From positions 1 through 48,466 of the forward strand of contig JBBSJZ010000001.1 of NCBI GenBank assembly GCA_038256795.1: DNA of 48,466 nt, in the 5' to 3' direction. Below the pieces are notes generated by a model. That model was not told where the DNA came from. It searched no databases and worked only from the letters and a program-made list of their open reading frames with translations. Made by a program: the position numbers and the translations under genes. Positions 12,552 through 47,237 of this stretch are shown piece by piece; position 1 is the stretch's first letter, and the number at the start of each line of letters is the position of its first letter. Source of the stretch: Pirellulales bacterium (GTDB lineage: Bacteria; Planctomycetota; Planctomycetia; Pirellulales; Pirellulaceae).

Positions 12552-12559
12552 GAGAGCAT

Positions 12560-16308: not shown

Positions 16309-17259
16309 CTAGTCGATGCCTTCGACAATTTCGACGGGCGGTCCGTGAAGAAACTGCCAAGCCGAATGGCTGGCATAACACAGCACTGCGACGGTAAGCA
16401 CGACCACCCCTAAGACCCTAATCCGGTCGGGATCCGCGAGGCTGTGCAGACCAAACGTGAAACGAGAAGTTCGTCGGGAGGGGGTTTCTGATCGGCGAGC
16501 GGCGGCCCGTGTTTGCGAAGGGCTGCTGGATGTGGCTTGGACGGCTCGCCCGGCCGCTTGGCTTGCGGTTACCGCTCGGGGATCGATCTCGGCCAGTGTG
16601 CCTTCGTCGGTTTCGACAGGCGTATCTTCGAAGATGCCGTCTTCCTCATCGTTGTCTTCCGCTCGTCGGGCCGCATCCGATTGACGAATCAACTCGTAGC
16701 GTTGTTCTCGCGCGAGATCATCGGAAATCTGCAAAAAGCTGGCGACATCAAATTCTTGCCAAGCTTCGCCAGTGACGATCGACGTTGCCGGCTTAGCTAG
16801 CGCCGCTTCAGCATGCACCGCGTTGACGACGGCTTGCCGCGTCGGCACGATTGACTCGACGGCCCCCTTCGACACAGCGGACGGCCTTTTGGCCGAACAA
16901 GCCACGTCCTCATCACTTGCTTCGCAATGATCGGGCACGTTGTCGATCGAGACTGTAAAACTGGCTCTGCCCAAACGAAGTTCATCGCCATCGTCGAGAG
17001 CATACCATCGTTTAGATTCAATTTTTTCTTCGTTGATTCGCGTTCCACTGGTGCTGTCCAGATCAATGACCCGAAACCCCGATTCGTCGTGATGCAGCAA
17101 GCAGTGACGACGACTGACCGAACGCGTCTTCGGACGTATTTGGCACTCCGGGTGCCTGCCGATCAAGTAGTAACCCGGTTGGATCGGTGCCACCAGTCCT
17201 GCATTGCTGCCAGAGGACAAGACGAGGTGAACGATCGTCGCGTGGGCTGACCGGTGCAT
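16309..17259 (-). CDS. FHA-domain protein with acidic linker and C-terminal transmembrane anchor
   Basis: ORF 16309..17277 trimmed to ATG 17259, 1 nt after the kinase stop (TAA-C-ATG). FHA signature YLIGRHPECQIRPKTRSVSRRHCLLHHDESGFRVIDLDSTSGTRINEEKI. C-terminal hydrophobic helix IRVLGVVVLTVAVLCYA. Confidence 0.85.
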   Translation of the reverse strand: MHRSAHATIVHLVLSSGSNAGLVAPIQPGYYLIGRHPECQIRPKTRSVSRRHCLLHHDESGFRVIDLDSTSGTRINEEKIESKRWYALDDGDELRLGRASFTVSIDNVPDHCEASDEDVACSAKRPSAVSKGAVESIVPTRQAVVNAVHAEAALAKPATSIVTGEAWQEFDVASFLQISDDLAREQRYELIRQSDAARRAEDNDEEDGIFEDTPVETDEGTLAEIDPRAVTASQAAGRAVQATSSSPSQTRAAARRSETPSRRTSRFTFGLHSLADPDRIRVLGVVVLTVAVLCYASHSAWQFLHGPPVEIVEGID

Positions 17260-17260
17260 G

Positions 17261-18781
<1,521 letters not shown>

Positions 18782-19587
18782 AGCGACGATCGTTGAACGG
18801 GGGTGGGCTGGAGAATTGATTTCGTTCCGCAAAACAGGCAGAGCAGCGATTGTATCAATCGGCCGCCGCGACTGCGAATGCGCAGTGCGGGCATTGGCGC
18901 CGTTAAACCAGTACGACCGCAACAGGCCCGTGAAGGTTGTGTGAGTATTTCGTGTGCATTGCGTGAGACCGCTTTCCTGGTCGACTCAAAATACCCCCGA
19001 GGCAGGCGGATTAGCCACGACCGCACATCCCAATTTCTCGATTAGAAGCAACAAGACGAAATTACTGATGAGGGAACCGTGAATAATTGGCGAACAAACC
19101 CTGAAGCGGTTTGCGCGACTGGACAGCACTTAGCCAGATGCTGTAGGCTCGACTACCTTTTTAGCGGACAAACTGGATCGCGCTACCCGATTAAAATTTT
19201 CGGATCGAGTCCTGTCGCCATGAACGTGAAAGTATCGGATCGTTTGAATCGTCGATTGACGGATTTGGCCATGCTTCTGATTTGTGGCCGACTGACTGGA
19301 AATCACCTGTGGCGGTCAATAGGCGATACGCCGATGATGAAACCTTTCGTGGGCGGGCACTTTCGCAACGAAATGCTGGATGCGTGCGAACAAAGTGTCC
19401 TGAACAAGGAATCATACCTATTCCCAACTTGGCTATGGGGACTGTGAATTCTCCGTGAAGGTTGATCTTGATGGGCTTCTCATCAACTCGCTCCTCAAAG
19501 AAACTCCTTGTCTCCGATCGTCGCAGCGGCACATTCGATCACGAAGTTCGTTGAGGCAAAGGCGTTTCGAAATTTCTCATTCGCTTC

Positions 19588-20466
19588 ATGTGGCGGGTAC
19601 AGAGAGCGATGGTGACAGAACTAATGAATCGCGAATTGACCGTCCGCTGTGCAAATTGTGCAGTTCAAATGAGCGTCAAAGCGGCACAGACCCGCGTGGT
19701 GATCACGTGCCCAATTTGTGCTCACAAAACGACGCTTGATTGGTCGAACGGCCAATATGTGTGCGGTGCGTTAAGAGACGATGATTTTAGTCGGCTTCCG
19801 GATCCAATCGTCGTACAAAAACCCGTCGCGGGTCCCGCCCGAAGCGAGCGAACCCTTCGCCGTGCGGCGAGGCTCGCGTACATGAAAGAGAATCGAGATT
19901 CGATTCAGGCAGCCCGCATCGAGATGCTGAAAATGGTCGCCGTTGCATTGGTTTGCTTGGGAATCACCGTTGCCATTGTCACTTTGTCTTACCAAAAACT
20001 GAACAAGGTCCCGGCGCATTATTGGGCGGAAGTCATTCCCGGAATGGAGTCACCGGATAAGTTACTGAAGCAGTACGCAGGCATCTGTGCCAACTGCACC
20101 GCGACTTGCAATTCGATTGATGATGCAAGCTCTCGCGATCAAGCCGCTCCGAAAATACGCGCGATGGCTGCGATCTTGAGTGAGTTCCCTCAACGCGTTG
20201 AGAATATGGCGCAGCTTGCGGCGACCCAGATTCAGTCGCTGGACCCGTCGTTTCGCGAAACTGTCGAGCTAGGTCAGAAGCAAGCACGGGAGAGCGTCGA
20301 GCGTGTACAGTCAAAAAAGTCAGCATACTCCGCCGAGCTCTTTCAGGCATTGATTAAGTTTTTGCAAGCCAACGACGCGGCCGCAGAAGCGATTTTGTCG
20401 AAGTGGACGCCTAGCACTAACTCGGCTTCCTCCGACGACGAATTGTTGGCAAGCGAGCGGAATTGA
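19588..20466 (+). CDS. Zinc-ribbon / single-pass membrane protein, first gene of the GspF/GspE locus
   Basis: 292-aa ORF (start uncertain: ATG 19588, 19609 or 19624). N-terminal CxxC-x17-CxxC (CANCAVQMSVKAAQTRVVITCPICAHK). TM helix MVAVALVCLGITVAIVTLSY. Helical C-terminal domain. No recognised family. Confidence 0.6.
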   Translation: MWRVQRAMVTELMNRELTVRCANCAVQMSVKAAQTRVVITCPICAHKTTLDWSNGQYVCGALRDDDFSRLPDPIVVQKPVAGPARSERTLRRAARLAYMKENRDSIQAARIEMLKMVAVALVCLGITVAIVTLSYQKLNKVPAHYWAEVIPGMESPDKLLKQYAGICANCTATCNSIDDASSRDQAAPKIRAMAAILSEFPQRVENMAQLAATQIQSLDPSFRETVELGQKQARESVERVQSKKSAYSAELFQALIKFLQANDAAAEAILSKWTPSTNSASSDDELLASERN

Positions 20467-20595
20467 GAGTGATCGAGTTTCGATATTCGTGCAGTCTGCG
20501 CGTTGCCTACGCCAAGCGACAACAACGCCGGCAACGTTCCACACTACACTTTTGCCCGATGTACAAACCATCGTTGTCGTTGAATATGAGGATCG

Positions 20596-21654
20596 TTGAT
20601 TGTGCTTTCAAATCGCATCGGGAATCAAGCTCTCAGTACCCTCTGTGAGCGAGTGGGCGTGGCATTTGAAGTCGGGCTAGACCCATATCGAGTTTTCGAT
20701 CGTGAAGCCAGCGGCACTCACACGCAGTACGGTCGGCGAATGCGATCGGTCGCGGATCATGTTCGTGAAGGATCGTCGCTTTCAGACGCGGTGAAGGCCC
20801 AGGGGAACTACTTCCCGGCTCACTTCGCTGAGATGCTCGAAGGTGGCGAGAAATCAGGAAGTCTCGATCGGGTGCTGGAACGGCTTGCGGAGTATTACCA
20901 GCAGCTTGCTGAGTTCAAGTCCGTGTTCTTCTCGTCGATCTTATGGCCAATCGTGCAGCTCATCATGGCGGTCGTCGTGGTGGGGCTGATGATTTACTTG
21001 CCAAGCGTGTTGTTGCCAGGCGAGTCGAAAGAGAAGCAAGATCTGATTGGCATCGGTTTGGTGGGCGAGAGTGGCCTGCTCACGTATGGATTGATCGTCG
21101 GTGCCGTGTCGCTCATCATCGGGGCTTTCTATGTTCTGATCCGAAACGGCTATTTGTCGTTCGTGCCGGATTGGATCGCCCGCATCCCAGTAATCGGTCG
21201 CAATCTCCGCGTTTTCGCTGAAGCACGCTTCGTACAGACGCTCGCTATCACCATCGACGCTGGGGTCGATGCCGCTTCGGCGATCGATTTATCGTTTCGG
21301 AGTGCGGGTACAGGGCAGTACGCAAGCAAGGCGGAATCGGCCAGAGACGCGATTCTTCAAGGTTGCGATATGCACACCGTGCTGGCCGACACTCACCTGT
21401 TCCAAGAAGATACGATCGAAGTCGTTGAGCTCGGTGAAGCTTCGGGAAGGCTTGCAGAATCCCTCGACAAGCATTTCCATCAACTGAAGCGTCAGGTCAA
21501 AAGTTCGATGGTGAAGGTCACTTACTTCGCTTCGGCGTTGATATGGATTTTGATCGCCGCTCTCTTGATCATCATTATCTTTCGTGTTTTTTCGACGTAC
21601 GTTACCGGATTAGAAGGTCGAGCGACGGATGCGATCATTCATAAGCCCCTTTGA
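20596..21654 (+). CDS. GspF/PilC-family type II secretion / type IV pilus platform protein
   Basis: 352-aa ORF (TTG 20596, or GTG 20602 with GAGGA 9 nt upstream). Two T2SS-F-type repeats (ALSTLCERVGVAFEVGLD..., FVQTLAITIDAGVDAASAIDLSF...). Three hydrophobic helices in the typical positions. Confidence 0.85.
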   Translation: MIVLSNRIGNQALSTLCERVGVAFEVGLDPYRVFDREASGTHTQYGRRMRSVADHVREGSSLSDAVKAQGNYFPAHFAEMLEGGEKSGSLDRVLERLAEYYQQLAEFKSVFFSSILWPIVQLIMAVVVVGLMIYLPSVLLPGESKEKQDLIGIGLVGESGLLTYGLIVGAVSLIIGAFYVLIRNGYLSFVPDWIARIPVIGRNLRVFAEARFVQTLAITIDAGVDAASAIDLSFRSAGTGQYASKAESARDAILQGCDMHTVLADTHLFQEDTIEVVELGEASGRLAESLDKHFHQLKRQVKSSMVKVTYFASALIWILIAALLIIIIFRVFSTYVTGLEGRATDAIIHKPL

Positions 21655-21741
21655 TGTGTCAATCCTTCGTCAAACAAGCACTTTTGTCCGTTGTCCGAGC
21701 TCAATTTTTCGTCATTTTGATCTACTTCTGAGGAACGTCCA

Positions 21742-23007
21742 GTGATCCAGTCTGCAACAGTCCCGCGAAACGGAGTCGCATCGGATACCGACCATTCGCT
21801 CAACGCGCAGCTCGACAGGCTCAGCGTGCGTCTTAGCCAATTGAGCTCCAATTCCGCGAACTATGCGACTCAGTTTGTTGCGCAGTTACTCGAATTCGCT
21901 GATGCTATCGGGACGAGCGACGTGCATTTGCAACCGACGCTCGGTGAGTTGGAGGTGAAGTTCCGTTTCGATGGTGTGCTGCAGCACCTTGGCGAGTTTC
22001 CCACAGGGGTGACGTCATCGATCGTTTCTCGCTTGAAAGTTCTCTCCAACTTACTGACGTATCGCAATGACATTCCCCAAGAAGGTCGCATTGCGTTGCC
22101 GGGCGAGGCGGCAGAAGTACGAGTGAGCACGTTTCCGACCCTGTATGGCGAACGTGCGGTACTGAGGTTCTTCGGGCGCGGCAAGAATCTTAAGCGTCTC
22201 GAGGATCTTGGGCACAGTTCAAACGTTACGCAATCTCTTTACGAGACGCTCGCAGAAACCAGCGGTGCGATGTTGGTGACGGGACCTGCTGGCAGTGGCA
22301 AATCGACGACGCTGTTCGCTTGCCTGCGTGAACTGGCTCATTCGTCCGGCGGAAACCGTAGCCTTCTGACAATCGAAGACCCGATTGAGGTGCCCTTAAT
22401 CGGTGTTTCCCAAAGCCAGGTCAACGTACCCGCCGGGTTTGATCTGCACACGGGCTTGCGATCGCTGCTGCGGCAGGATCCCGAGGTGATCATGATTGGT
22501 GAAATTCGTGATCCATTGACCGCCGAAATCGCGATTCAAGCCTGTTTGACCGGACAGTTGATGTTGACCACTTACCACGCCGACAGCACGGCGACGGCCA
22601 TCACTCGGTTGCTGGACATGGGCATCGAACCCTATTTGCTGCGTAGTGGTGTCATCGGCATCCTGAGCCAACGACTCCTTCGTAAGGTTTGTCAATGTGC
22701 AACGATGTCGACCAACGAAAAAGATTTCTTTGGGCTGCCCCTGAATTCATGCCTGAACCCGCAAGGTTGCGTTACCTGCAACATGACGGGCTATATCGGA
22801 CGCGTGGTCGCGAGTGAGTTCCTTTCGTTGAAAGATTCCAGCCTTGCCGACCAAGTTCTTGACACGCGAGACAGTCGTTCAATTTACCGAATTGCGACAG
22901 CCAACGGCATGAAGTCGATTTGGGAAAACGCCACGGACCTCGTTCGCAATGGAACCACCAGCCCAGCGGAAGTCCGCCGAGTCCTCGGATTGTCAATGCG
23001 AATTTGA
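21742..23007 (+). CDS. GspE/PilB-family secretion ATPase (short form, no long N-terminal domain)
   Basis: 421-aa ORF. GTG start with GAGGAA 6 nt upstream. Walker A GPAGSGKSTT, Asp box LLTIEDPIE, Walker B DPEVIMIGEIRD, His box LMLTTYHAD, tetracysteine CQC...CVTC. Confidence 0.9.
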   Translation: MIQSATVPRNGVASDTDHSLNAQLDRLSVRLSQLSSNSANYATQFVAQLLEFADAIGTSDVHLQPTLGELEVKFRFDGVLQHLGEFPTGVTSSIVSRLKVLSNLLTYRNDIPQEGRIALPGEAAEVRVSTFPTLYGERAVLRFFGRGKNLKRLEDLGHSSNVTQSLYETLAETSGAMLVTGPAGSGKSTTLFACLRELAHSSGGNRSLLTIEDPIEVPLIGVSQSQVNVPAGFDLHTGLRSLLRQDPEVIMIGEIRDPLTAEIAIQACLTGQLMLTTYHADSTATAITRLLDMGIEPYLLRSGVIGILSQRLLRKVCQCATMSTNEKDFFGLPLNSCLNPQGCVTCNMTGYIGRVVASEFLSLKDSSLADQVLDTRDSRSIYRIATANGMKSIWENATDLVRNGTTSPAEVRRVLGLSMRI

Positions 23008-23321
23008 GGGCCGACTTCCGTAAAGAAACGATGAAGTATTGGTGAGTTCGCCGATTTGATCTTGAATCGCGGCCAGCAACGCGTGAAATAGCCACAAAAA
23101 GTGAGGCTATTCCGAGTGAGCTTCGGCGTCATCGTCCGAACGGCGAACCAAAATCACAGGGCTAGCCGCCCAGCAAACAAGAATCTCGGGACTTCATCCA
23201 ATACTAACAACGACTGCACATCGGCTTCGCGATCCCTCGGTTTAATACGCTCCACACAGCCGAACGGTTTGCCGACGGCGACAAATAAAACGACTCAACC
23301 ATGATGCTAATCCTACCCTCC

Positions 23322-24485
23322 ATGAACGTCACCCGCAAAACATCGGTAGCCCGCCGCGGCTTCACGTTGATCGAGTTGCTGGTCGTGATTTCGATCATTG
23401 GCATTCTTGCTGCCTTGCTGTTGCCAGCGATCGGCAAAGCCCGAGAGGCTGCTCGGGGTGCGCAGTGTCAGAACAATTTGAAGCAATTCGGAATCGCGAT
23501 GATGGCCCGAGCCGTCGGTGCTCCCGAAGGGTCCCTTTGTACCGGCGCTTTCGATTTTGAACGCGACGGTGTGCCCACCGAAGTCGGCTGGGTCGCCGAC
23601 CTCGTGACTCGCGGTGTCATGCCCAGTGAGATGCGATGCACCAGTAACGGTGGTTTGCTGGCGAAGGCGATTGAGCAAGTGTTGACAATGCCCACTGCGG
23701 ACTTCAAGGACGACGAGTGCATCAAGCGACTCGGCAAACCCGAATTCACCAGTGAGACCGGCGACGTGATCAAGAATATCGCTCGCAAGATCAAAGATGG
23801 CAACTTCGCACCGTCGATGACGGATCGGCAAGAGCTCGTGCAAAAATACATGATCGAAAATGGCTACAACACTAATTATGCCGCGTCATGGTTCTTGGTT
23901 CGTAGTGAATTCAAGTTGAGCACCAACGGTAATCCAGATCCCTCGCCGTCGACTTGTGACACCGAGGGTCGTGGTCGCTACGTGACGCGAGGCCCGCTCA
24001 CCACCCGGTTGCTCGATGTCGGCCGCGCACCGGCCAACACCGTGCCGTTGCTCGCCGATGCGTCACCCGTGGGTCAATTGTCGGCGACGGTGGGCGAGTT
24101 CCAAGCGGGAACACCCTACGTCACTCCCATCATCGGTATGCCCGTTCACAACGTACTCACGCCATCCGCACCATCGACCACGAATTTCCTCGATGTCCCC
24201 GCGTTCCCAGCGACGACTCTCCGCGAAGGATTGGCGGGTTGGTTGCGAACGTGGGGCCACGAAGTCCGGCAAGATTACCGAGGCATGGCCGCCATTCACT
24301 CCGGAGTCGTCAACGTGTTGATGGCCGACGGTAGTGTTCGCGGCATCATCGACGATAACAACGACGGGTTCATCAACAATGGTTTTCCGGCAAGCAGTCC
24401 GTTTTGGGAAAGCGATGAAATCGAAGCGAAGGATTTGGTCCTGGCCAGTTACTACAACCTGAACTCGAAAGGAGCGGAGAACTAG
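23322..24485 (+). CDS. DUF1559 / H-X9-DG prepilin-like protein (type IV pilin N-terminal methylation motif)
   Basis: ORF 23301..24485 trimmed to ATG 23322 to give the leader [13 protein letters not shown]|[27 protein letters not shown]1559 core [12 protein letters not shown]-terminal [12 protein letters not shown] (H-X9-DG). Confidence 0.85.
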
Positions 24486-24953
24486 AGTCAACGTGGTGTT
24501 CGATCGTGGCAACTCGGTGGGCCGCGACCTTACAGAATTCTTAACCCAAAACTCATGCGGTATTCGGAGTTGAATCCGCGTGTTTGAATAGTCGAGTTTC
24601 TTCGGAGACTCGCACTCCATCACTGAGAGAGTAGCGGCAGCGACGGTTGCCCGATGTCAACGCGAGACGCTTGAGCAAGAACGCTCGAGCCGGCGAGTTT
24701 AAGAGAAACGGCCGAGTTCGATGATCGCTTTCGAGCTCGGCAAAAGTCTGGGATTTTGCCAGACGAGCAAGCGTTACGTGGCGACCGCTAACGGTTAGCG
24801 GAAGTCAAAAAAAGAGGCGGGTGACCCGCGAGAACGATTCAGACTCGGAAAAGACGAGTCGTTCTTCAAACGGGCCACCACGCCAAAACACCCCTCGATT
24901 GTGGGCAAGGCACATCGCCATGTCTAGTACAAACTGTTTTAGGAGAATTTGGA

Positions 24954-26204
24954 ATGAAATTGCGAAAGCAAGCTGAGGGTTTCACCCTCATCGAACTGTT
25001 GGTGGTCATTGCGATCATCGCTCTGTTGGCAGCCCTGCTGTTGCCAGCCATCACGAAGGCCCGTGAAGCCGCCCGCTCGGCCCAGTGCCAAGCCAACCTC
25101 AAGAACATCGGCATCGGCATGTTCAAGTACAGCTCGCGTACTCCAAGTGGTGCTTACTGCTCGGGTGCGTCGGACCAGTTCCGTGACGGTTGCATGGACA
25201 CGTTCGGCTGGGTAGCTGACATTGTCAACGTCGGCGACGGTAACATGAACGAGTCGCTTGACCCATCCAACCCGCTCAAGGGCTCGGAGAAGTTGAATGA
25301 ATTGCTCAAGTTGGTTCCATCGACGGGTGATCTGGCGAAGGACGGTGCAATCGTCAGTCGTAAGTACGTTGGTAAGTGTGGTACCTCCACCAACTACATG
25401 TTTGGGTCGAACACTGATGATCTTCGTCGCGAGTACATCTCGAAGAACTTCATGACCAATGGTTACAACACGAACTATGCCGCTAGCTGGCACTTGATCC
25501 GTGGTGGCTTGAAGACCACTGTCACTGGCGGTTTACTCTTCACCGGGCCAGACGATTTTTTCAAGGGCGTCGGTGGCACCACCGGTCCTTTGAGTGCTCA
25601 AGTGATGGACACCTCGCGTATCTCCAGCAGCAATGTCGCCTTCATCGGCTGTGCAGCACCTGGCGACTTGAAGGACGGCATACTTTCACAGACTCTCGAG
25701 CACGCTGACAACGGTCAAATTGTCAAATACATCGAAAGCGGCAGCCTGTTGACCGAAGCGTTCAACGACGGTCCTGCTCATGCGAACGACACCGCTGCGA
25801 TCGCGTTGATCGACCCGAGTCGTTCATTGTCGAGCCAACTGGTTTGCGAACGTGACGAGCCTTCGACCGTCAATTGTGCAGCACCAACTGGTGATAGCGC
25901 TGGTGTGGACGCTCTCGGTACTACAGCAGGAAACGGAATCTACTTGCAAGACACTCGCGACTGGTTCGCTATTCACCAAGGCAGCGCTAACATCCTCATG
26001 GGTGATGGCAGCGTCAAGCAGTTCTACGACGTCAACAGCGATGGTTACTTGAACCCAGGCTTCGGCGTTGCTCCGGACGCGACTCAGATCGACAACGTTG
26101 GCTATGCTGACGCAACCGTCGAAATGACTCGTGACCAATTCTTCGGTGGTGTGTTCATCAGCGACAATTTCTTCAAGGGCAACTTTGAAGAATCTAACCA
26201 GTAA
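24954..26204 (+). CDS. DUF1559 / H-X9-DG prepilin-like protein, candidate major subunit
   Basis: 416-aa ORF. AGGAGA 7 nt upstream of the ATG. Leader MKLRKQAEG|[35 protein letters not shown] core. [12 protein letters not shown] (H-X9-DG). Followed by a strong hairpin terminator. Confidence 0.9.
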
Positions 26205-26233
26205 GCTCTTGACTTGCTGAGTTGACGATGATG

Positions 26234-26268
26234 GCTCCCTCGGCGAAAGCCGGGGGAGCTTTCTATTT
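26234..26268 (+). terminator. Intrinsic terminator downstream of the second prepilin gene
   Basis: 11-bp stem GCTCCCTCGGC / GCCGGGGGAGC (26234-26244 / 26249-26259, one G-U pair) closed by a GAAA tetraloop. Followed by TTTCTATTT. Confidence 0.6.
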
Positions 26269-26301
26269 GAATTCAATTTATTCCCGTTGCTATTGATTAA
26301 T

Positions 26302-27480
26302 ATGAAGTCTTTGCCAAAACGAATGAGTATCGCGTTCGCGACGGGAGTTTGCTTCCTACTTGCCGGCGTCGGTCTAGCGAGCATCGTGGTCTACAAACCG
26401 TATGGCGTCCGTGATAGCCAGCGTGCGGAGTACGAAAACATATTGTCGGACATTCGGCTCAAGGCCGAGCTATCACGGTCCAAAGTGACAAGCGAGTTGC
26501 CAACCGCCTTTGTACCCGAAGCGGTTCATGTCTTCGGGAATATGGCGCCGCACAGCAGCGATACGCACCAGTTTCGAATTCAAAACACGGGCTCTGGACC
26601 CTTAACGTTGGATGTGGTCGGTACATCGTGCAAGTGCGCGACGGGTCGGTTGACGAAGGGGATCGTGCCCCCGGGCGAGTCCACGGAACTTGAGGTGACA
26701 TGGAATACGGGTCAACCAGGAGAGGAATACGATCAAACGGTCTTGCTGAAAACCAACGACCCCGAACACCCACAGATAGAATTGACGATCCAAGGCGAGG
26801 TTTATGCCGAGCTGGTCGCACCGGAGCAAGTTGGCTTCGCCAAAGCTGACTTAAGCGATGTCGTCAAATCTGGTTTCGTCATTTACAGCCAACTTTATAA
26901 GGAACTCTCCGTCGTTTCGTGCGATTGTGACTTACCGGGATTCGAGTGGTCGGTCGAGCCCGCGTCGATTGAAAAGATGGACTTACTCCACGCTGAGACG
27001 AAGTCGGCGTTGAATCTGAGCATCCAGTGCAAGCCAGCCAAGCGAGGTGAGTTTACCGGTACGGCGAAGCTCACGTTAATAAACGAATTGGGCAGTATGC
27101 TCGAGCGATCGATCACGCTGTCCGGCAAGGTCCGCGCGTCAATCAATTTTTACGACTCGGAGATTTACATGAAGTCGGGGCTCGACATGGGAACGTTCAC
27201 CTCGGGCAAACGTCACGAGTTTGCGATTGTCGTTCGCGCCGATGAGAAGGATCGGGATTTGGAAGTTCTGCGAGTCGAACCACCCGAAGTCAAAGCGACC
27301 ATCAAGCGACTCGGAAAGAACGGCGCGCATCGACTACTGATCTACATCCCCAAAGACTGTCCCACTGTCGTATTTAACCTAAACTCAAAGCGAGGTTACG
27401 TCGAAGTCGGTGATCCTAACGACAAGTCCTATTCGAACTGGTTGCCGATTTACGGAGCTGTCGCCAAAGCCGAACTCTAA
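26302..27480 (+). CDS. Membrane-anchored DUF1573 domain protein (Ig-like/PapD-like repeats)
   Basis: ORF 26287..27480 trimmed to ATG 26302. N-terminal anchor MSIAFATGVCFLLAGVGLASIVVY. DUF1573 signature HQFRIQNTGSGPLTLDVVGTSCKCATGRL...PGESTELEVTWNT. Further beta-rich repeats follow. Confidence 0.8.
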   Translation: MKSLPKRMSIAFATGVCFLLAGVGLASIVVYKPYGVRDSQRAEYENILSDIRLKAELSRSKVTSELPTAFVPEAVHVFGNMAPHSSDTHQFRIQNTGSGPLTLDVVGTSCKCATGRLTKGIVPPGESTELEVTWNTGQPGEEYDQTVLLKTNDPEHPQIELTIQGEVYAELVAPEQVGFAKADLSDVVKSGFVIYSQLYKELSVVSCDCDLPGFEWSVEPASIEKMDLLHAETKSALNLSIQCKPAKRGEFTGTAKLTLINELGSMLERSITLSGKVRASINFYDSEIYMKSGLDMGTFTSGKRHEFAIVVRADEKDRDLEVLRVEPPEVKATIKRLGKNGAHRLLIYIPKDCPTVVFNLNSKRGYVEVGDPNDKSYSNWLPIYGAVAKAEL

Positions 27481-27606
27481 GGGACTGTTTCGATATAATT
27501 TCCTCATGTCACTCTCCCGCTCGCGGGAGAGTCGGGCTCTCAGGCCCGGAGAGGGCAGGTGAAAAACGGGATTTTTTTTCGGAACGTTTACTAGGTTAGT
27601 GTCGAT

Positions 27607-27645
27607 GTAGGCCGGATCAAGGAGCGTCAGTGACGCCGATCCGGC
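27607..27645. repeat. REP-like palindromic element, copy 1 (GTAGGCCGGATC ... GATCCGGC)
   Basis: GTAGGCCGGATC at 27607-27618 pairs with GATCCGGC at 27638-27645. Nested palindrome GCGTCA-G-TGACGC inside. The same 12-mer recurs at 31427. Confidence 0.5.
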
Positions 27646-27730
27646 AGGATGTGGGGGGTGACATGAGTGTCGGTGGAAGATGCCGAATCTCCCCGAGCCT
27701 CGAACCGGCCTATGAGAGTATCTTCGCGTG

Positions 27731-29905
27731 ATGAACAAGCGACACGAATTTCACCAAACGTGGGTGTTTGTTTGTTCGGCGATCGTTTTGTTGGTTGCTG
27801 CGACGCTGGCTCATTCGTCTGGATTGACCGGTGCGTTCGTCTTTGACGATGTCCCGGAGATCGTCGAGAGCGAGCGACTACGCGAGCCGATTCAAGTACG
27901 TGAACTGTTTCAATCACGCGGACTCGGTTACATCACGCTGAAGCTGAATTATCTGGCGTCCGAACTCGAGCCTCGGGGCTATCACCTGTTCAATCTGGCG
28001 GTCCATCTTGCCGCCTCTCTAGTGTTCTGGGCGGTTCTGGTTGAGCTGCTGGTGATTCGCCGCCATCATTGGCATCCGGCGATCGCTCGGCACGCGGAGT
28101 TGATTGCCTGGAGCTCAGCACTGTTGTGGTCCGTTCATCCGATCACGACGCAGGCGGTGGTTTACACGATCCAGCGATTGGAATCACTGTGGAGTCTCGC
28201 ATTCTTGGTGGGACTGGCAAGCTACTTGGCCGCGATCCGGCAAACTTCACCGCGTCGGCGATGGATCGGGTTGACGATCGCCGTCGTGGTTTTTTGGATG
28301 GGCATGCTCTGCAAAGAACCGCTCGCGGTGGCGCTGGTGGTGCTGCCGATTTGCGATCGACTCTTCGGTGCTTGTTCACCTCGTCAATGGTTTCGAGAAC
28401 GAGGCGTGTTCTATGCGGTGCTCGCAATACCGGTCTTGATGGCGATCCCCGTGGTCGTGCTACCGAGCATACTCTCGTCGGACAAAACCGCCTCGGGTGG
28501 CCTTTATACGCAAGTCGTCACGCCGATGGAGTACTGGCGAACGCAACCGGAAGTGCTGCTGCTGTACGTGTCGAAGATCCTGGTTCCGATTCGACAATGC
28601 TTCGACTATGGCTGGCCGCCACAGGACAACGTCGTACGATGGCTGGCGTCGACAGTGTTCGTCATCAACGTGCTTGCCGTGTCGCTGCGAGCATGTTGGC
28701 GAGGGCGAGCGTGGAGTTGTTTTTCGCTGTTCTTTTTCGCATGCACAGCGACAACGTGCCTAGTTCCACTGATTGACTTAGCGGTCGAGCACCGTGTTTA
28801 TGTGGCGAGTAGCTGGCTGATCGCGGGAGGTCTCGCTGGCGTGACCGTCATTGGGTCACGCTTTTGCGAATCGCTTCGCATCGATCAATTGCACGCGGTT
28901 TACCTGGCCCGGTTCTTAATCGGGTTGTTAACGGTCACTCTTGCTTGGTTGACGCACGAGCGTTCGTCGATGTATGAGTCACCGCTCTCGCTTTGGCAGG
29001 ACACGGCGATGACGGCGCCGTGGAACTTCCGCGCCCACGTGAACGTCGCTTCGGAACAGTTGAAGCGTGACGAGCCGAAGGCGGCGATCGCCAACTGTCA
29101 GCTCGCTCTCGGTTTGCCGAGCTTCGATCGACAACCGGATCACCAGCAGGCGAAAGTCCACGACTTGCTCGCGTCGGCGCTTTCCAACAGCGGCGATATC
29201 GATGCCGCGGTAATCGCCGCGGAGAAGGCAGTGGCGCTAACTCCTGGCGGCAGCGATCATTGGATGCGGCTGGCCAGTGTCTACACACAGCATTCGATGT
29301 GGACATCGGCTGAAGCGGCGCTGAGACGCGCGATTGCCAACCGGCCCAAACGCGCGGTCCTGTACGAGCACTTGGCGACCGTTCAAATGAAAACCGCCCA
29401 GTGGCGATCAGCCAAAGAGTCGCTCGAGCGTGCCAAAACGCTGGGCGCCAGCGATTCGTCGGACATTCATCGGCGGATCTCCGAACTCGAGACCCGATTG
29501 GACCGTGCCGCAAGTTCCGCCGACGTGCGGATTGAAGAAGGGTCAGGCGATGCAGCGGCCTGGGTTTCGGCCGGCAACACCTACCGCGTCGCCGGTGACG
29601 ATGCGCAAGCAGCCCGCAGCTACGCACGAGCGGTCGAATTGGACGGTCGCAACAGTGCCGCGCTCAACAATCTCGGCGCAATGATCTCCGCGAGCGATCC
29701 GGCTCGTGCGGAATCCATTCTCCGCCGCGCCGTCGAAGTCGACCCCGCGAACGTCCAAGGCTGGCATAGCCTCGGCAACGCACTCGTGCGACTGGAGCGT
29801 TTAGACGAGGCGGTTGAATGTTACCGCCAGGCACTCGTCATCAATCCATCCTTTGAGCCGTCACGCCAAACGCTCGAGAAAATTTCGAGGGCCGTCGCGC
29901 GGTAG
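27731..29905 (+). CDS. Polytopic membrane protein with C-terminal TPR repeats, TMTC/GT-C glycosyltransferase-like
   Basis: 725-aa ORF (ATG 27731). About 10 hydrophobic segments over the first ~430 aa, with FVFDDVPEIVES after helix 1 (resembles the TMTC/DUF1736-type motif, from memory). C-terminal TPR repeats (e.g. WHSLGNALVRLERLDEAVECYRQALVINP). Confidence 0.8.
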   Translation: MNKRHEFHQTWVFVCSAIVLLVAATLAHSSGLTGAFVFDDVPEIVESERLREPIQVRELFQSRGLGYITLKLNYLASELEPRGYHLFNLAVHLAASLVFWAVLVELLVIRRHHWHPAIARHAELIAWSSALLWSVHPITTQAVVYTIQRLESLWSLAFLVGLASYLAAIRQTSPRRRWIGLTIAVVVFWMGMLCKEPLAVALVVLPICDRLFGACSPRQWFRERGVFYAVLAIPVLMAIPVVVLPSILSSDKTASGGLYTQVVTPMEYWRTQPEVLLLYVSKILVPIRQCFDYGWPPQDNVVRWLASTVFVINVLAVSLRACWRGRAWSCFSLFFFACTATTCLVPLIDLAVEHRVYVASSWLIAGGLAGVTVIGSRFCESLRIDQLHAVYLARFLIGLLTVTLAWLTHERSSMYESPLSLWQDTAMTAPWNFRAHVNVASEQLKRDEPKAAIANCQLALGLPSFDRQPDHQQAKVHDLLASALSNSGDIDAAVIAAEKAVALTPGGSDHWMRLASVYTQHSMWTSAEAALRRAIANRPKRAVLYEHLATVQMKTAQWRSAKESLERAKTLGASDSSDIHRRISELETRLDRAASSADVRIEEGSGDAAAWVSAGNTYRVAGDDAQAARSYARAVELDGRNSAALNNLGAMISASDPARAESILRRAVEVDPANVQGWHSLGNALVRLERLDEAVECYRQALVINPSFEPSRQTLEKISRAVAR

Positions 29906-30029: not shown

Positions 30030-31385
30030 TCAGTTCCCTAAATCGAAAGCGGCGAGTCGTTTTTCATCCTTGATGAACAACCGCTTGCCGGAAACGGCAG
30101 GAGTTCCGAAACAAGGTTCACTCATGACGGGTTCTTGGGTGAACGACAGTACGCGCGGTTCGTCCTCACCGCAAAGCACCGATGCCAAGTGGCCACGTTC
30201 GCCCAGTAGAATCATCGCATTGCCGGCGATCAGTCCCTGGCCACGACGGAGGATGCTGTGATACCGCCAGCGTAACTTGCCGGTGGCGAAGTCAACGCAG
30301 CGGAGTTCGGCGCCGCCTTGGCCCGCCGACGTGAAGGCGTACACGAGTCCATCGCGAAGCATCAACGTGTTGTACTGGCAATCGATGATGCGTCGGTCTT
30401 TCCAAACTTGTTCATGGCCGCGATCGGGCAAGATCCGGAGGCAAATCGCGCCGGGGCCCGGCCCCGTCACCGCGAGCACTTTGTCGTCATGCACGATGGG
30501 TGAAACGGAGTTGTAGGACATCGGCGCCTTGCTAAACAGCTCGACAAACCAGTCGAATTCGCCGGTGTCGGGATTGAGCGAGATGAGCCCCTTGTCGGTC
30601 ATGAGCAAGACGAATCGCTTGCCATGAACGCTGGTGACCACTGGCATTGCGTAGGCGACACCGTGGTCCATCGCGGTCCAGCGAGTTTCCCCCGTCGCGG
30701 CATCCATCGCGATCACACCGGCGTTTTGTGAACCAGCTCCCAGGTTCAAAATGAGTTGGTCGCCGTCCAGCAGCGGGCTGGTGCCGACGGGAAAGATCGC
30801 TGGCTCGACGTCGTACTCCGCATGCAGCTCACGATGCCAAACGACGTGGCCATCGTCGAGATCGAGGCAATCGAATTGGCCTTGGCCACCGATGTGAAAG
30901 ACACGTCGCGACTTGGCGTCGATCACCGGTGTGCTGTAGGGGCCGTTGCTGTACTCAAACTCACACTGGGCGGTGGTCGAATAACGGTGTTGCCAAAGCA
31001 GTATTCCATCTTCGGCTCGATGGCACTGGACGATTTCTTCATCACCGACGCGATGGCTGACGACGACGCGCCCGTCCGCGACCACGGGTGAGCCGTAGCC
31101 TGTGCCCATCTCCGCTTCCCAAAGCAGTGGCGGGCCAGTGTCCGGCCAGATAACATTGGCCGACACATCACCTCGCGATGTTCGGTGGGGACCGAGTAGT
31201 GCGGGCCAATCATCGCGAGACTGGAAATCAGTGGGCGTGGTCGCATACTGGGCACGCGCCGCTTGATCCGGTGCATCCGCAACTTTCGGTTCCACTAGCG
31301 GCAATTCGTAGTCGCGCTGCGGCGCGGGGCGATTGCAACCCAGAACGAGAGCGACGAGCAGCAGCGGATAAGTGATTGAGTGCAT
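30030..31385 (-). CDS. PQQ-like/BamB-like beta-propeller lipoprotein
   Basis: 451-aa ORF. Lipoprotein signal MHSITYPLLLVALVLGC. Repeated blade motifs EDGILLWQH, DDGHVVWHRE, ATGETRWTA, DTGEFDWFV, ATGKLRWRY. Confidence 0.85.
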   Translation of the reverse strand: MHSITYPLLLVALVLGCNRPAPQRDYELPLVEPKVADAPDQAARAQYATTPTDFQSRDDWPALLGPHRTSRGDVSANVIWPDTGPPLLWEAEMGTGYGSPVVADGRVVVSHRVGDEEIVQCHRAEDGILLWQHRYSTTAQCEFEYSNGPYSTPVIDAKSRRVFHIGGQGQFDCLDLDDGHVVWHRELHAEYDVEPAIFPVGTSPLLDGDQLILNLGAGSQNAGVIAMDAATGETRWTAMDHGVAYAMPVVTSVHGKRFVLLMTDKGLISLNPDTGEFDWFVELFSKAPMSYNSVSPIVHDDKVLAVTGPGPGAICLRILPDRGHEQVWKDRRIIDCQYNTLMLRDGLVYAFTSAGQGGAELRCVDFATGKLRWRYHSILRRGQGLIAGNAMILLGERGHLASVLCGEDEPRVLSFTQEPVMSEPCFGTPAVSGKRLFIKDEKRLAAFDLGN

Positions 31386-31471: not shown

Positions 31472-32608
31472 CTAAGGAACTCGAAATTCTTCGAGCGATT
31501 CGATGACAACGGGGGCTTCATTGGTTTCGACGTTCACGACGGATGAATCACCGTTCCCAAGACTCGCCAACCACGCGAATCCACCGAGCATCACGATAAA
31601 ACTGGCAAGGACGCCGGCGAGCTTGGGATAGCTTGCCAGTCGAATCCGAGGTCGATCGACAAACGTGCTTGGCGGACGCGAGGGCAACAGCTCGATCGGC
31701 TCGGCCACCCGTTCTTGGATCGCCGTTTGCAATTGCACATTCGCAGCTTTGAGTGAGTCGATCCGCTCGGAGGGATCTGCCGCCGTGAACCGCTGAATCA
31801 CCGGCAACAGGTCTCTCCAGGGCGTATCCACGTCGAGGCCATTGCCCGCCGTCGATCGCCAATCACCTGAAACGGCGAAGAGCAACACTCGTCCGATACT
31901 GTAGATCAGTCGCCGGCAACCGGTGCTCTGCGATCCGGAAATCGTTTCGGGCGGCATGCAAGCTCGATCGTCACTGGCGAAGACCAACGCGTCAGTGCTG
32001 GTGATGCGGCGTTTGCGAAGGAACACCAGCACATCGGTTTCGTCCAGATCGACCAATCGTACTCGGCCATCCGTGGTGAAGATGACTTGCCGAGGACGAA
32101 GACCCTGAAGCGAATCCACTTTCGCTTCACGAAAACACTCGATAACGCGGGCGATCATGCGAACCGCGTCATCGCGATGCAGCGGCCCATGCCGATCGAC
32201 AAGATCTTGAAGGCTCTCACCAATCACATGCTCGCGGATGACATACAATCGATCGTCGTGATCGAAAATTCGATCAGGCAGTGTCAGTCTCGGTGATGAT
32301 ACAGACAGAGACGTTTTCGCGATCGAGCGATACGAATCGGTATCGAGGGAAAGCTCCTTCGCAAATCTTCGCATCCGCAGCATCCGTCCGCTCGGTAGCT
32401 CACGGACGAGGTACGTCTCCGCGTGTGGCTTGGATTCGAGCAAGTCAACGATGAGATACCGATCAACCAACAGGTCGCCCAACCGGTTTTGGGCAACAAG
32501 ACGCGATTGCAAAGGGGTCGGTCCCGCCGCGCGGTCGGAGCCAGGAGCATTACAGGCCGCATGATACAGGGATCGATTCGATCTCCACCACCATGCTGGA
32601 TTCGCCAT
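31472..32608 (-). CDS. Membrane-anchored protein-kinase-like protein with degenerate catalytic motifs (pseudokinase)
   Basis: ORF 31472..33136 trimmed to ATG 32608, 5 nt after the giant gene's stop; the longer ORF overlaps that gene out of frame. Kinase-like fold signals are YVIREHVIGESLQDLV (hinge) and MPPE (APE-like). There is no G-loop, the VAIK Lys is LRMRRF, HRDLKPxN is LQGLRPRQV, and DFG is DLD. C-terminal TM LAGVLASFIVMLGGFAWLASL. Confidence 0.7.
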   Translation of the reverse strand: MANPAWWWRSNRSLYHAACNAPGSDRAAGPTPLQSRLVAQNRLGDLLVDRYLIVDLLESKPHAETYLVRELPSGRMLRMRRFAKELSLDTDSYRSIAKTSLSVSSPRLTLPDRIFDHDDRLYVIREHVIGESLQDLVDRHGPLHRDDAVRMIARVIECFREAKVDSLQGLRPRQVIFTTDGRVRLVDLDETDVLVFLRKRRITSTDALVFASDDRACMPPETISGSQSTGCRRLIYSIGRVLLFAVSGDWRSTAGNGLDVDTPWRDLLPVIQRFTAADPSERIDSLKAANVQLQTAIQERVAEPIELLPSRPPSTFVDRPRIRLASYPKLAGVLASFIVMLGGFAWLASLGNGDSSVVNVETNEAPVVIESLEEFRVP

Positions 32609-32613
32609 GGCAA

Positions 32614-35600
32614 TCACTGCCGCAACCGGCTGAGCGTGTCCCACACCTTGAGCCGATTCTCCTCGCCGACGGTGACCGCGTACTCGGGCACTTGTAGAGC
32701 GGCATCCGTATCGGAGATTGCCACGCCGACGACCGGACCGCTGTGTGCCGGGCGGCCGTCGGCAGTCAAGTCGATGACTTTGCCAGTCCCCAAGTTTCCG
32801 ATTTGAACGTTTCCTCGATCGTCGGCGGTGATCAGCCATTGACCATCCTGGGTTACCGAATACCGCGGTCGACCACTGGAAGTCAGCAGCGGTATCGATC
32901 GTAGGGTGGAGCCGACAACGCAGCTGACGACTTGCATTTGGTTGCCCCGTCGAAAGGCGATCAACGTCGAGCCAGCGAAACTGGTGCCGCGTTCGGCTCG
33001 CTCCTTGGGCGTCAAACGACGCGTTACAAAGAACAGCGGTCGGTTCGCGCTCTCGTCCAAGAATGGGCCTTCGCGTTCGACCGGCCCTACGAATCGGTGG
33101 ATGCCTGCAGCCGAAGGCAGACCGCTTGCGGGCCATTCGATGCGATAGACGCTGTACGCGTACCGCTCCTCCGAAATTTTAGAATGCACCACTAACATGC
33201 GGTCGTCGGGCGAGAAGCAGAGCGTTGACGGTCCCGGCGATCCTTTCTCTTGATTCTCACCCTCGCTGTTGGGTTGAATGATCCAAGGATTGCTCATGCT
33301 CCCTTCTTCCACCAAAGTAATTTGTCGCGGATCGAGGGTCGATGGATCGGCGATGAGCAAGCGGTATCCATTACGTTCTCGCACATTGAATGCGATCGCG
33401 CGATGGGTGTTCGCGAAGGCCATCGCCGTGATCTCGCTCTCAAACCCGCGCAGGGTCGCGACCGGCGCCGCCGACTGACGCATCAGGTCTTCGTTGCGGA
33501 ACACCTGCAGCGCGACGCTTTCCTGGTTGGGCAAACCGCGATTGGCGATCGCGAAGAGTCGCTCTTCGCCGTAGGGCGGATCGTCCGACGACGTCGCGTA
33601 ACGAAGCGCTTCTAAAATTGACCTTGAAGTTCCGTCCTGAGAAAACACCTGCAAGTCGGGCATCGTCAGCACGCCACGGCCATCGGGCAATCCGAACAAC
33701 TCGCGCACTTCCAATTGCAAATCATCCCAGGCGTGCGTCTGGACGCCGGTAACGCCGAAGTCCCAAACGTAAAGCGAACCGGGTTGTTGGGCGCTGCGAG
33801 GCATGGCGGCATAAACGAATCGCCCGTCGTTCAACTGTGGCTCTACCGTTCTGACGCCGCCGCTGAAGTCGAATTTTGTTTCAGCGCTGAATAACAGATT
33901 CGATTGATTGTCGGCGAAGGTTTTTGATCCGGCGGCACGTTTTAAACTCGTCAGGCTACGTCGTTGCTCGTGAAAGTCCCGACGAGCATTGACGAGGCGA
34001 GCGACGACAGCGTCCGTCGACTCCGTGGACGCTTCGATCCGTTTTAGTTCACGATATTTCGACGCCACTTCACTGGTTTGGCGAGAGTCGTCCTCAAACA
34101 AACTGAACACCTCTCCTTCGGCCGAAATTCCCGACCCGGTCAACAGCGCCGCGCGCACATCCGCGAATGCGTCTTCTTCCGCGGATACTTCTTCAAAGGC
34201 TGCATCAATCTCTGGTAGGTTTTGTAGATCTGTCGACGCGACGGCCTCGGCTTGAGGAATCGCGTCATCGCGTCCCTCCAGCGACCCGGCCGGTATCGAC
34301 CAGCGGCGGACGGACCGGTCTGCCGAACAACTGACAAGCTGGTTGCCGCCCTCCGCGATCGCCAACGAAGCGATAGGAGATTCGTGCCCGATAAACTGGA
34401 ACGCCGATTTCTGGTTGCTCAAGTCGATCACTTCGATCAAGCCTGAACGTTCGCCCACGATCAGCTTGCTGTCACTGACGAACTGAATCGCATCCGCTGG
34501 CGAACGAAGTGCGACGCTGACCGACGGCTCAAGTTCACCGCCCCAGGCCATGTCGCGACCGAGCTTCCACACTTTGACATGCGGCGTCGCACCCCCAAAG
34601 CTGACCGCGATGGCGTTTCCGTCGGCGCGAATGATCGCGGCCAGCGGCAACGGCTCACCCTGGGCGAGCGTCACGATATCGGGTTTCGCCGTTGATGACG
34701 ATGTCAACGATTCGATCGTGACACTCTTGTCCGTCGCCGCGAGCACGTACTTCCCCTGACTGGCGTTCAACAGCCGCACCGCTCCGTCACACCGCTGCAG
34801 CCGTGATGACAACCGTCGAGGCGCCCGCACCGCGATCCCCGCATCGCCCCCAATCCAAACCGCATCATGATCCGCGATGCTCAAGGTTCTCGGAATTTCC
34901 GCCAATTCATTGCGTTCCAACTCAACGGCGTCCAGCGAATCGAAACTGCGCACCGATCGATCGTCCAAGGCGACATGCACTCGAGCCGAGTCCGCAGAAA
35001 ACGCGATCGCCGTGATCGCACCGGGAACGCTCCATTGAAGTGGTTGGCTCTCGGGATCTTTCAAATTCCAAATGACCACCGTGGACCCACTTCCCAGTCG
35101 TCCCGAGCCGGACGCCGACGCGGCCAACTTCGTGCCGGCAAGATCGACGGCCAATCGATCGAAAGAAACATTTTCACTCGCAACGAGAGCCTTCGTCTGA
35201 CTTTTCGCAACATCAAATACCGAGACCGATGACGTGCCATCGGCGATCGCGATGGCACCCAGCTGCGGTAACTCGATCAAGTCTTTCACGGTCTTGAACT
35301 GTAACCCAATGCCTCTTCCGTTCTCGTCGATAGGCACGACTTGCATCGATGCCTTGCCTTGGGACCGAATGGCCAGAGAGGAGGCGTCAATGAACATGGC
35401 TCGTTCGACGTCGCCATCCACTTTGATCTCAAGCGGCGCGGTATCGCCGCCGGCCAGTTGATGAACGAGCAAACGACCGTCGGTTGCCAGCGTCGCGATT
35501 CGAGTTTGCCGTGCTCGCGTTAAGATCTGTTTCGTTGGCGGCAACCCCTCTCGCCACGTTCGCGGCGAAGCCGGATCCGTGCAATCCAGAATCCGCCCAC

Positions 35601-38139: not shown

Positions 38140-38686
38140 GGCGGCAATCACCAGCGCTGGCTCAAGACGGTTCGTTGAGATCCAGATTCCAGGTCTTCGA
38201 GTCATAACGGTTAGGTATCTGCGGTCGATGGAGCAAAAAACGCCGCGAACTCCGGCCATCAGGGTCAAACCCCAAGCACCAAACGCTCGCACCCAAATTG
38301 TCGCACAAATGATCGATTGATTGCACCCAATCGAGATGAGAATACCACGAGCGAATTTCGTGAATTTCCGATGAAGAACAGCTCTTGGCTGAAAATTTTT
38401 GTTCCCATTCGCTGCAATCAATACATGGCTGAAGAACGATCTGAGATCTCACTCCGTGCGACTATCGCGATAGCCGAGATTGTCCATCGGTTTCGCTCGT
38501 TGCGTCCCAAACGAAAACATTTTTCTTGCAACATGCTCAGCGACTCATGCCAAAGTCACTGCTAAGTCAAAACATGAAGATTGCGTCTGCATGTGTTGTT
38601 GCGTCGACCGGGCTTCGATAAGCTCGCGTCAAGACGGTCCGCACACTTACTTTCCACTCGTTGCTCAACCAGGAAATCACCATCAA

Positions 38687-39973: not shown

Positions 39974-40097
39974 TCTACTGAATCACAATGAAGACAGTGT
40001 GAACTCCCCATGTCGATCATGGTGACTCGTGTCTTTCGCTTCGAGCGAAAGTAACGTTTCTACATTCTTTCTCTGGAAGCGAAACGCGACAACGACT

Positions 40098-41943: not shown

Positions 41944-42008
41944 GAGGAGTAACTCGCTTAAACATTGGAAAATCGGAGGTCGACGAAGTACTCAGAAACA
42001 TCAACGAG

Positions 42009-44039: not shown

Positions 44040-44077
44040 TCGTTATCTTTCGGCCTGATTGCGCGAAACTGCACAGG

Positions 44078-46008: not shown

Positions 46009-46061
46009 TACCAATCGCTACCGTCATTTGAAAAGTTGTTACGAATGATGCAATTGCCCTG

Positions 46062-47015: not shown

Positions 47016-47237
47016 TGTGGCAATTGCTGCAGGATTGAGAAGGCGGAGTTAACCGGCTCATCCGTCGTAAGTGTGCGCCGGAGGTTTTAGAGGCATTTCT
47101 TCAGTGTCCAATGGCTATTTGTCGGCGAGTATTGCGGCCTGTACACTTTGAGTGCCGGGAGAAAGGGAGTTGAGCTCTGCAGAGGTGCAACTTGACAAGG
47201 GATATCCCGGCCGACGGTGCGCCAAAGGTGTTGCCGG

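Follow-up and report, generated by a model that had tools for sequence, protein, structure and literature searches.

Juxtaposed motor and DUF1559 pilin modules of a putative dispersed type IV filament system in a Pirellulales genome

Seven co-directional open reading frames (ORFs; g1–g7, positions 19588–29905, + strand) in a 48,466-nucleotide stretch of a Pirellulales bacterium contig (JBBSJZ010000001.1, assembly GCA_038256795.1; the whole stretch is called the window below) encode a zinc-ribbon protein, a GspF-like platform (F), a GspE-like ATPase (E), two DUF1559 prepilins, a DUF1573 protein and a membrane protein with tetratricopeptide repeats (TPR). We read this locus, with a probability of about 50%, as three units of separate inheritance that came to lie side by side in this lineage: g1, an unrelated neighbour, and two modules, g2–g3 and g4–g7, of a dispersed type IV filament system that resembles the type II secretion system (T2SS). 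On the best reading of the related loci, the motor and pilin modules were brought together in the lineage of the window by rearrangement.

To our knowledge the DUF1559 prepilin-like proteins, which are among the largest paralogue families in Planctomycetes, have no known function or assembly route. Planctopirus limnophila encodes 68 of them, two being essential (PMC10632474), and T. immobilis 91 (PMC8567305); the DUF1559 expansion and a T2SS-like operon in Planctomycetes are already in the literature (PMC8567305, PMC10632474). Pilins and the T2SS go unmentioned in a 2025 review of the phylum, and our literature search found no description of a cassette of pilin A, pilin B and DUF1573 with a PilM fusion, of a module of F, E and the zinc-ribbon, two-transmembrane protein Zn2TM, or of their occasional adjacency. 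The features of the locus are listed here with coordinates and strand.

19588..20466, +: g1, zinc-ribbon, single-transmembrane (TM), helical protein; neighbour, not component
20519..20595, +: upstream leader of the gspF-like gene, where DNA homology with the closest relatives begins (blastn)
20596..21654, +: g2, GspF/PilC-type platform, 352 amino acids (aa); PF00482 (T2SSF) E = 7e-31, two repeats
21742..23007, +: g3, short GspE/PilB-type assembly ATPase, 421 aa; PF00437 (T2SSE) E = 1.8e-89, 300 bits
23301..24485, +: g4, pilin A, DUF1559 prepilin; N_methyl, PF07596 and TIGR04294 above cut-offs
24954..26204, +: g5, pilin B, DUF1559 prepilin; N_methyl, PF07596 and TIGR04294 above cut-offs
26233..26260, +: intrinsic-terminator-like hairpin (12 bp, 9 GC) and U-rich tract directly after pilin B
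26287..27480, +: g6, bitopic DUF1573 protein; PF07610 E = 4.6e-17, one N-terminal TM segment
27728..29905, +: g7, polytopic membrane domain (~8 hydrophobic segments) and C-terminal TPR repeats (TPR families)

Domains were called by hidden Markov model scans with Pfam and NCBIfam, the Pfam scans covering 44 window ORFs, which include every non-nested ORF of at least 150 aa. The scans agree with the domain identities that an earlier note on this DNA had given to the seven genes, and they bear out its remark on missing accessory genes: secretin, prepilin peptidase, PilM/N/O and GspC/L/M domains occur in 0 of the 44 ORFs. Peptidase_A24 was found neither in the window nor in the annotated flanks of L081–L097, and the entire window holds only two prepilin motifs.

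The GspF–GspE motor module

The top NCBIfam model for the ATPase g3 is GspE, at 364.6 bits against a cut-off of 630.25 and over model positions 109–485; since the match begins only at position 109, the N1E domain, by which GspE binds GspL, is missing. Walker A (residue 181), the Asp box (212), Walker B (249) and the His box (277) are all present, cysteines stand at residues 317, 319, 337, 343 and 346, and among solved structures Thermus PilF and Vibrio GspE come closest (E ~1e-73 to 1e-74). The platform g2, with three hydrophobic segments, has GspF as its top NCBIfam model, at 134 bits under a cut-off of 424. Together with the E5 prepilin-leader subunits encoded downstream, this GspE/PilB ATPase and GspF/PilC platform supply three parts of the core set of a type IV filament machine; the fourth, a prepilin peptidase, is absent from the window.

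None of the canonical classes fits. As to the T2SS, there is no GspE equivalog with an N1E domain and no GspC/L/M/D among the scanned window ORFs. The type IVa pilus (T4aP) models PilB and PilC reach 311.7 against 675.65 and 86.7 against 700, and the window holds no PilM/N/O/P/Q or PilT, while the TadA-family model of Tad/Flp systems scores 33 bits against a cut-off of 373.

A g3 scan of species-representative genomes, from which 80 loci were kept, yielded a neighbour-joining tree in which the window's ATPase groups with L001–L014 and L090 (61–86% identical, mostly Pirellulaceae). Every member of this clade has a single F gene directly upstream of E, and in L001–L014 and L090 these g2 orthologues are 51–88% identical to the window's. 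In blastn comparisons with the four closest relatives (L001–L004, 76–78% identical), homology begins at 20519–20601 and ends exactly at 23007, the g3 stop codon. The shared block therefore covers F–E alone and leaves both g1 and g4 outside, and the genes that flank F–E in the four relatives have no counterpart in the window. We read g2–g3 as an 'orphan' motor module, of a type seen in Pirellulaceae, within the type IV filament superfamily.

Directly after E, 11 of 16 related F–E loci (L001–L009, L021 and L090; for example L002:11317-12108) carry the gene for Zn2TM, a protein of no Pfam family that starts with a zinc ribbon, continues with an acidic linker and ends in a two-TM domain (YPTLESMQR...DIQDNTLRIANR), to which nothing anywhere in the window shows a match. 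In all four closest metagenome-assembled genomes (MAGs; L001–L004) the contig ends within ~1.5 kb downstream of Zn2TM, which may mark a repeat or rearrangement hotspot.

The sister clade of this ATPase group (L015–L031) is found in operons of E, two to three F paralogues, small pseudopilin-like genes and a terminal pilin gene with N_methyl and DUF1559 domains. These operons are probably of the type of Plim_0410–0401, the 'type II secretion' operon to which the essential-gene study of P. limnophila drew attention (PMC10632474). The two clades have short ATPases of ~400 aa in common, but the sister operons place E before F and include F paralogues and small pseudopilin-like genes, whereas the window's clade has one F upstream of E, no pilins and usually Zn2TM.

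The DUF1559 pilin cassette and its accessory genes

Both g4 and g5 proved to be prepilin-like, as had been proposed from the letters alone. TIGR02532 scores 34.6 and 26.0 for g4 and g5 (cut-off 16.3), PF07596 75.5 and 89 bits (23.3) and TIGR04294 27.2 and 24.1 (19). The leaders read ...ARRG|FTLIELLVV in g4, with E5, G14 and P22, and MKLRKQAEG|FTLIELLVV in g5, with E5 and P22; E5 and P22 are hallmarks of polymerising pilins. The H-X9-DG motif lies at residue 333 in g4 and 341 in g5, and the two proteins, 34–35% identical, have an 11-residue core in common. GspG/H/I models match only their first 30–50 residues (31–32 bits, against cut-offs of 80–89). An AlphaFold model of g5 (predicted local distance difference test (pLDDT) 90, predicted template-modelling score (pTM) 0.88, 56 orthologues in the alignment) consists of a 51-residue N-terminal helix (residues 12–62) and a beta-rich globular head, a predicted shape that is that of a filament pilin; a sequence search of the PDB matched the N-terminal pilin helix only. 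We also considered whether DUF1559 heads are periplasmic binding proteins, as in the archaeal bindosome idea, and rejected this: the Foldseek matches of the g5 model include no binding protein, and because this confident model has no PDB relative the notion, present in the Pfam name SBP_bac_10, is unsupported.

The pilin pair travels with the DUF1573 gene. Orthologues of g4 (49–65% identical) hold the first cassette position in L081, L082, L089, L090, L091, L096 and L097; g5 has 119 other relatives among the matches listed, all at least 49% identical and nearly all across 97–100% of the query; and g6 has 14 relatives, its orthologues being at position three in every locus that reaches that far. 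The order pilin A, pilin B, DUF1573 is kept in every locus recovered, at least ten Pirellulaceae loci (L081, L082, L084, L089–L094, L096 and L097), drawn among others from Crateriforma conspicua, Roseimaritima ulvae, Stieleria marina, Neorhodopirellula lusitana, Rhodopirellula halodulae, several MAGs and metagenome contigs. A metagenome scan with g5 returned four short loci only, all with the cassette order. We regard g4–g7 as a conserved pilin cassette that is its own inherited unit.

A stable, GC-rich terminator-like hairpin with a U-rich tract behind it directly follows pilin B in 8 of 8 loci (the window, L081, L082, L084, L089, L090, L096 and L097; z = −2.0 to −4.6), equivalent in structure and fully turned over in sequence. 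This is the pattern expected 3' of a highly expressed major pilin gene, and on account of the conserved terminator we propose pilin B as the abundant, and probably the major, subunit. The intergenic spacer between A and B, aligned across seven loci, contains no strongly conserved element.

The g6 model (pLDDT 85.5) comprises a TM helix, a second helix and three tandem immunoglobulin (Ig)-like domains, and its Foldseek matches are Ig arrays of the HYDIN/ASH type, generic arrays with no pilus-system-specific relative among them. What follows DUF1573 varies. In seven loci (L081, L082, L091, L093, L094, L096 and L097) it is a fusion protein of ~720 aa with three parts, a double zinc ribbon (DZR), a long helical stretch and an actin-like PilM_2 domain, located as follows in five of them.

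L081:11188-13332: DZR–PilM_2 fusion
L082:11244-13373: DZR–PilM_2 fusion
L091:12561-14732: DZR–PilM_2 fusion
L096:12677-14839: DZR–PilM_2 fusion
L097:12715-14892: DZR–PilM_2 fusion

Where the contig reaches, a lipoprotein of ~715–736 aa with DUF1559 segments comes next. Both the fusion and this large lipoprotein are absent from the window, where, as in MAG JTS-AC244 (L084) and N. lusitana, the TPR membrane protein stands after DUF1573 instead. The lack of PilM that had been noticed is accordingly true of the window and not of the system in general, because orthologous cassettes usually encode a PilM-like protein.

Residues 1–450 of g7 have no direct Pfam or PDB match, and a profile of its membrane domain searched against the PDB matched the TPR start only. 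The membrane-domain family numbers 18,641 representatives at E<=1e-3; 11 of 42 g7 homologues match PF13231 (PMT_2, of the GT-C glycosyltransferases), and an F-D-D motif shows little or no variation. An orthologue 56% identical to g7 follows DUF1573 in L084, and weaker paralogues occur in L089 and L082. With TMTC/PMT-type O-mannosyltransferases g7 has in common a polytopic N-terminal domain, the F-D-D motif in the first loop and the C-terminal TPR, although g7 itself matches no GT-C model and has no solved relative; the label 'TMTC-like' that it had been given thus has indirect support, through its homologues and not by a match of its own. From these features we reasonably infer that g7 is a periplasmic GT-C-type glycosyltransferase. 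Pilin glycosyltransferases such as TfpW exist. GT2, DUF2304 and g7-like genes lie beside cassettes at L082:1117-5267 and L097:17027-19184, and a DUF2304–DUF1559 fusion of 540 aa is encoded beside the cassette in L082. There are hints here of a lipid-linked-sugar glycosylation route tied to DUF1559 proteins.

Compared with known machines, the locus has in common with the T2SS core the top-ranking GspE and GspF models, the cysteine cluster in the C-terminal region of g3, the G|F-x3-E prepilin leader and a P22 as in GspG. It differs in motor scores far under the equivalog cut-offs, in a g3 without N1E, in a window without GspC/L/M/D/O or the minor pseudopilins H–K, in pilins of ~400 aa whose DUF1559 head has no solved relative, and in motor and pilin genes that form separate modules in most genomes. 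The ComGA/ComGB/ComGC competence pseudopilus of Firmicutes is likewise reduced to ATPase, platform and pilins, its locus has no secretin and its ATPase lacks an N1 domain, but its ComGA and ComGB models match at only 201 and 80.5 bits (cut-offs 300 and 240), and here the host is diderm, the pilins are large and the accessory genes are others. The T4aP accessory proteins have two partial counterparts. One is the PilM_2-domain protein of seven orthologous cassettes, in which, unlike in PilM, the domain is joined to a double zinc ribbon and a long helical stretch, and which the window lacks; the other is g6, which has the bitopic topology of PilN/PilO (TM segment, helix, globular part) but an ectodomain of three Ig-like domains in place of a ferredoxin-like fold.

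Adjacency of the modules and competing explanations

Motor and cassette lie next to each other in two genomes only, head-to-tail in the window and tail-to-tail in R. halodulae (L090), where a string of F, E, Zn2TM and a PQQ lipoprotein gene converges on the cassette. The genes that flank g1–g7 in the window bear on how this came about.

15294-16242, +: IS630-like transposase, split over two frames; DDE_3 E = 4.7e-15 for 15559-16242
16309-17277, −: FHA protein (Pfam)
17261-18922, −: Ser/Thr kinase (Pfam)
30030..31385, −: PQQ_2/BamB-like beta-propeller lipoprotein; PF13360 E = 2e-23, lipobox LVLGC; convergent with g7

The PQQ orthologue in R. halodulae (L090:15624-17021) is 53% identical to the window copy and shares 4 bp with the Zn2TM gene, and in L084 (JTS-AC244) the TPR gene is followed by the 3' end of this PQQ gene. 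PQQ_2/BamB-like genes recur next to these E/F genes, also in L014, L016, L022 and L051, and in several sister-clade loci PQQ-like genes lie upstream of E. The lipoprotein is a possible associated component, one that could reside in the outer membrane or the periplasm. We infer that the window order F–E–cassette–PQQ can be derived from that of R. halodulae by an inversion and loss of Zn2TM.

On the left side, L097 has an FHA protein and a kinase 61% identical to the window kinase directly upstream of pilin A, while in the window g1, F and E stand between kinase and pilin A; the FHA–kinase pair (16309-18922) is likely the ancestral left neighbour of the cassette. The IS630-like transposase beyond it marks a rearrangement-prone neighbourhood. 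Its upstream ORF (15294-15578), read from the sequence as a putative DNA-binding N-terminal part, is in another frame, and the split is either a programmed frameshift or a pseudogene.

The third unit, g1, is matched by neither Pfam nor NCBIfam. Its sequence shows two CxxC motifs (residues 21 and 41) and a single hydrophobic segment (~106–124), and it has only three relatives (41–60% identical) among 5.8 billion proteins. These orthologues (L085, L086 and L088) stand isolated among unrelated neighbours, either DUF58/BatA and a PAS kinase or PSCyt/PSD1 and DUF1583. MAG JTS-AC118 holds a g1 orthologue and has F–E–Zn2TM on a separate contig (L003); since the two families coexist there, g1 is no substitute for Zn2TM. 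That g1 might be a diverged Zn2TM copy was rejected too, given the lack of detectable similarity, the different architecture and the presence of both families in JTS-AC118. It is an unrelated zinc-ribbon membrane protein beside pilus genes. Of the accessory role once proposed jointly for the zinc-ribbon and DUF1573 proteins, the DUF1573 half keeps some support, DUF1573 being a conserved partner of the pilin pair, and the g1 half falls with the unrelated contexts of its orthologues.

Under the juxtaposition reading, pilins A and B would be inserted in the inner membrane by their N-terminal helix, as sequence and model suggest, cleaved after the Gly by a prepilin peptidase encoded elsewhere, and polymerised into a pseudopilus or fibre on the GspF-type platform, with the GspE-type ATPase driving the process and pilin B as the putative abundant subunit. 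The three-Ig DUF1573 protein (g6) may serve as a periplasmic or inner-membrane accessory, the zinc-ribbon–PilM fusion would be a cytoplasmic accessory in other genera, and g7 would act as a GT-C-like periplasmic glycosyltransferase, possibly modifying the pilins. The adjacent F–E pair is the best candidate motor, and that it drives the cassette is plausible; this candidacy follows from adjacency in two genomes and from the gene content of the sister clade, not from a conserved operon structure. A link between ATPase, platform and DUF1559 pilins, as originally suggested, is therefore retained in part: the adjacency recurs in R. halodulae and the sister-clade operons end in DUF1559 pilins, but the gene order is not conserved.

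Several observations weigh against the juxtaposition reading. In the nine F–E clade loci whose flanks extend 8 kb or more to either side, no prepilin gene lies next to the pair (in one of them such a gene is 8.4 kb off, on the opposite strand), six of seven long-flank cassette loci are without an E or F gene within 10 kb, and the close relative JTS-AC244 carries motor and cassette on different contigs. The 48-kb window shows no prepilin peptidase, secretin or outer-membrane conduit, and the g5 head is without a PDB fold relative (Foldseek best E = 2.1, TM at most 0.15). The DUF1559 proteins detected in T. immobilis were in membrane fractions soluble in detergent (PMC8567305), as would be expected of membrane-anchored proteins no less than of filament subunits.

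The modules' separation in most genomes is also what one would see if they were coincidental neighbours, F–E serving other substrates or the general pool of ~70–100 DUF1559 paralogues and the cassette using another motor encoded elsewhere, for example T4aP PilB/PilC acting with the PilM-like protein of the cassette itself. In other genera the cassettes include a gene for a PilM-like protein, as is typical of T4aP, and the area is rearrangement-prone, with an IS630 remnant and flanks that differ even among the closest relatives. Yet the adjacency recurs in R. halodulae in another orientation with an orthologous PQQ gene at both places, and the sister ATPase clade shares operons with DUF1559 pilins. 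We consider mere coincidence rather unlikely. We think it more improbable still that g4 and g5 are no filament subunits at all but inner-membrane-tethered periplasmic proteins, needing a peptidase only, in a layer with the Ig-like DUF1573 protein. The membrane fractions of T. immobilis, the large heads of ~350 aa and the family name SBP_bac_10 would suit such proteins; a g5 model that matches no solved structure, and thus no binding protein, the conserved E5 and P22 and the linkage of the cassette to PilM-like or E/F genes argue the other way.

The earlier note had suggested a compact dedicated machine: the seven genes together would be a minimal operon without a secretin for the assembly of DUF1559 pseudopilins, with g1 and DUF1573 in place of PilM/N/O or GspC/L/M. 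That the genes are co-directional and tightly packed, that other accessory genes were not found in the window and that DUF1573 is linked to the pilin pair all speak for it. The seven-gene order, however, occurs in none of the F–E or cassette loci examined, so the model largely fails the synteny test that the note itself had set; homology breaks flank F–E on both sides, the downstream one at the GspE stop codon, the cassette usually lies away from E/F, and g1 orthologues are unlinked to pilus genes. The conserved terminator after g5 counts against one simple g1–g7 operon, as does the 294-bp gap with a weak hairpin after g3, and relatives have Zn2TM, the zinc-ribbon–PilM fusion and the large DUF1559 lipoprotein, which are absent here. 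We judge this operon model very improbable, and the window's 'compact machine' is not to be read as a general architecture.

What the comparison does provide is a small core set apart from the mass of DUF1559 paralogues, a conserved pilin pair with fixed accessory genes, and a specific motor module found beside that pair in two genera, which together give a short list of candidate genes. More speculatively, and with low confidence, Pirellulaceae might possess a so far undescribed type IV filament system, with motor and cassette encoded at two loci, that builds a fibre or pseudopilus from DUF1559 proteins; the fibres observed at crateriform structures may be its product. Its motor module may comprise GspF, the short GspE, Zn2TM and the BamB-like lipoprotein, and its cassette may comprise pilins A and B, DUF1573, the zinc-ribbon–PilM fusion or the GT-C/TPR protein, and the large DUF1559 lipoprotein. 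If true, such a two-locus system would be the first defined assembly pathway, with a tractable core subunit pair, for the expanded DUF1559 family.

Other features of the window

The gene content of the window is planctomycete in character by Pfam, with PSCyt/PSD, DUF1552 and numerous Ser/Thr kinases and FHA proteins. Neither Rfam nor a tRNA scan gave a match in the window, a sigma-70 promoter scan gave no more matches than shuffled sequence (none on the + strand), and the g3–g4 and g4–g5 gaps hold no convincing small ORF and none that is minor-pilin-like.

Upstream of the transposase, two tandem paralogues (10233-12563 and 12560-14884, −) of 776 and 774 aa each encode a SulP transporter fused to a beta-carbonic anhydrase and share a 4-bp overlap. 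Downstream of the PQQ gene lie a 554-aa ORF with a faint kinase-like match (31472-33136, −) and a giant WD40/beta-propeller ORF of 1935 aa (32614-38421, −); the start of the former falls ~520 bp inside the latter as called, and the called start codons of both are doubtful. The far end (39164-48087, −) holds a second FHA protein and then a glycan-synthesis cluster of three GT2, one GT1 and two FkbM-type methyltransferase genes, over which GC falls to 0.49–0.51.

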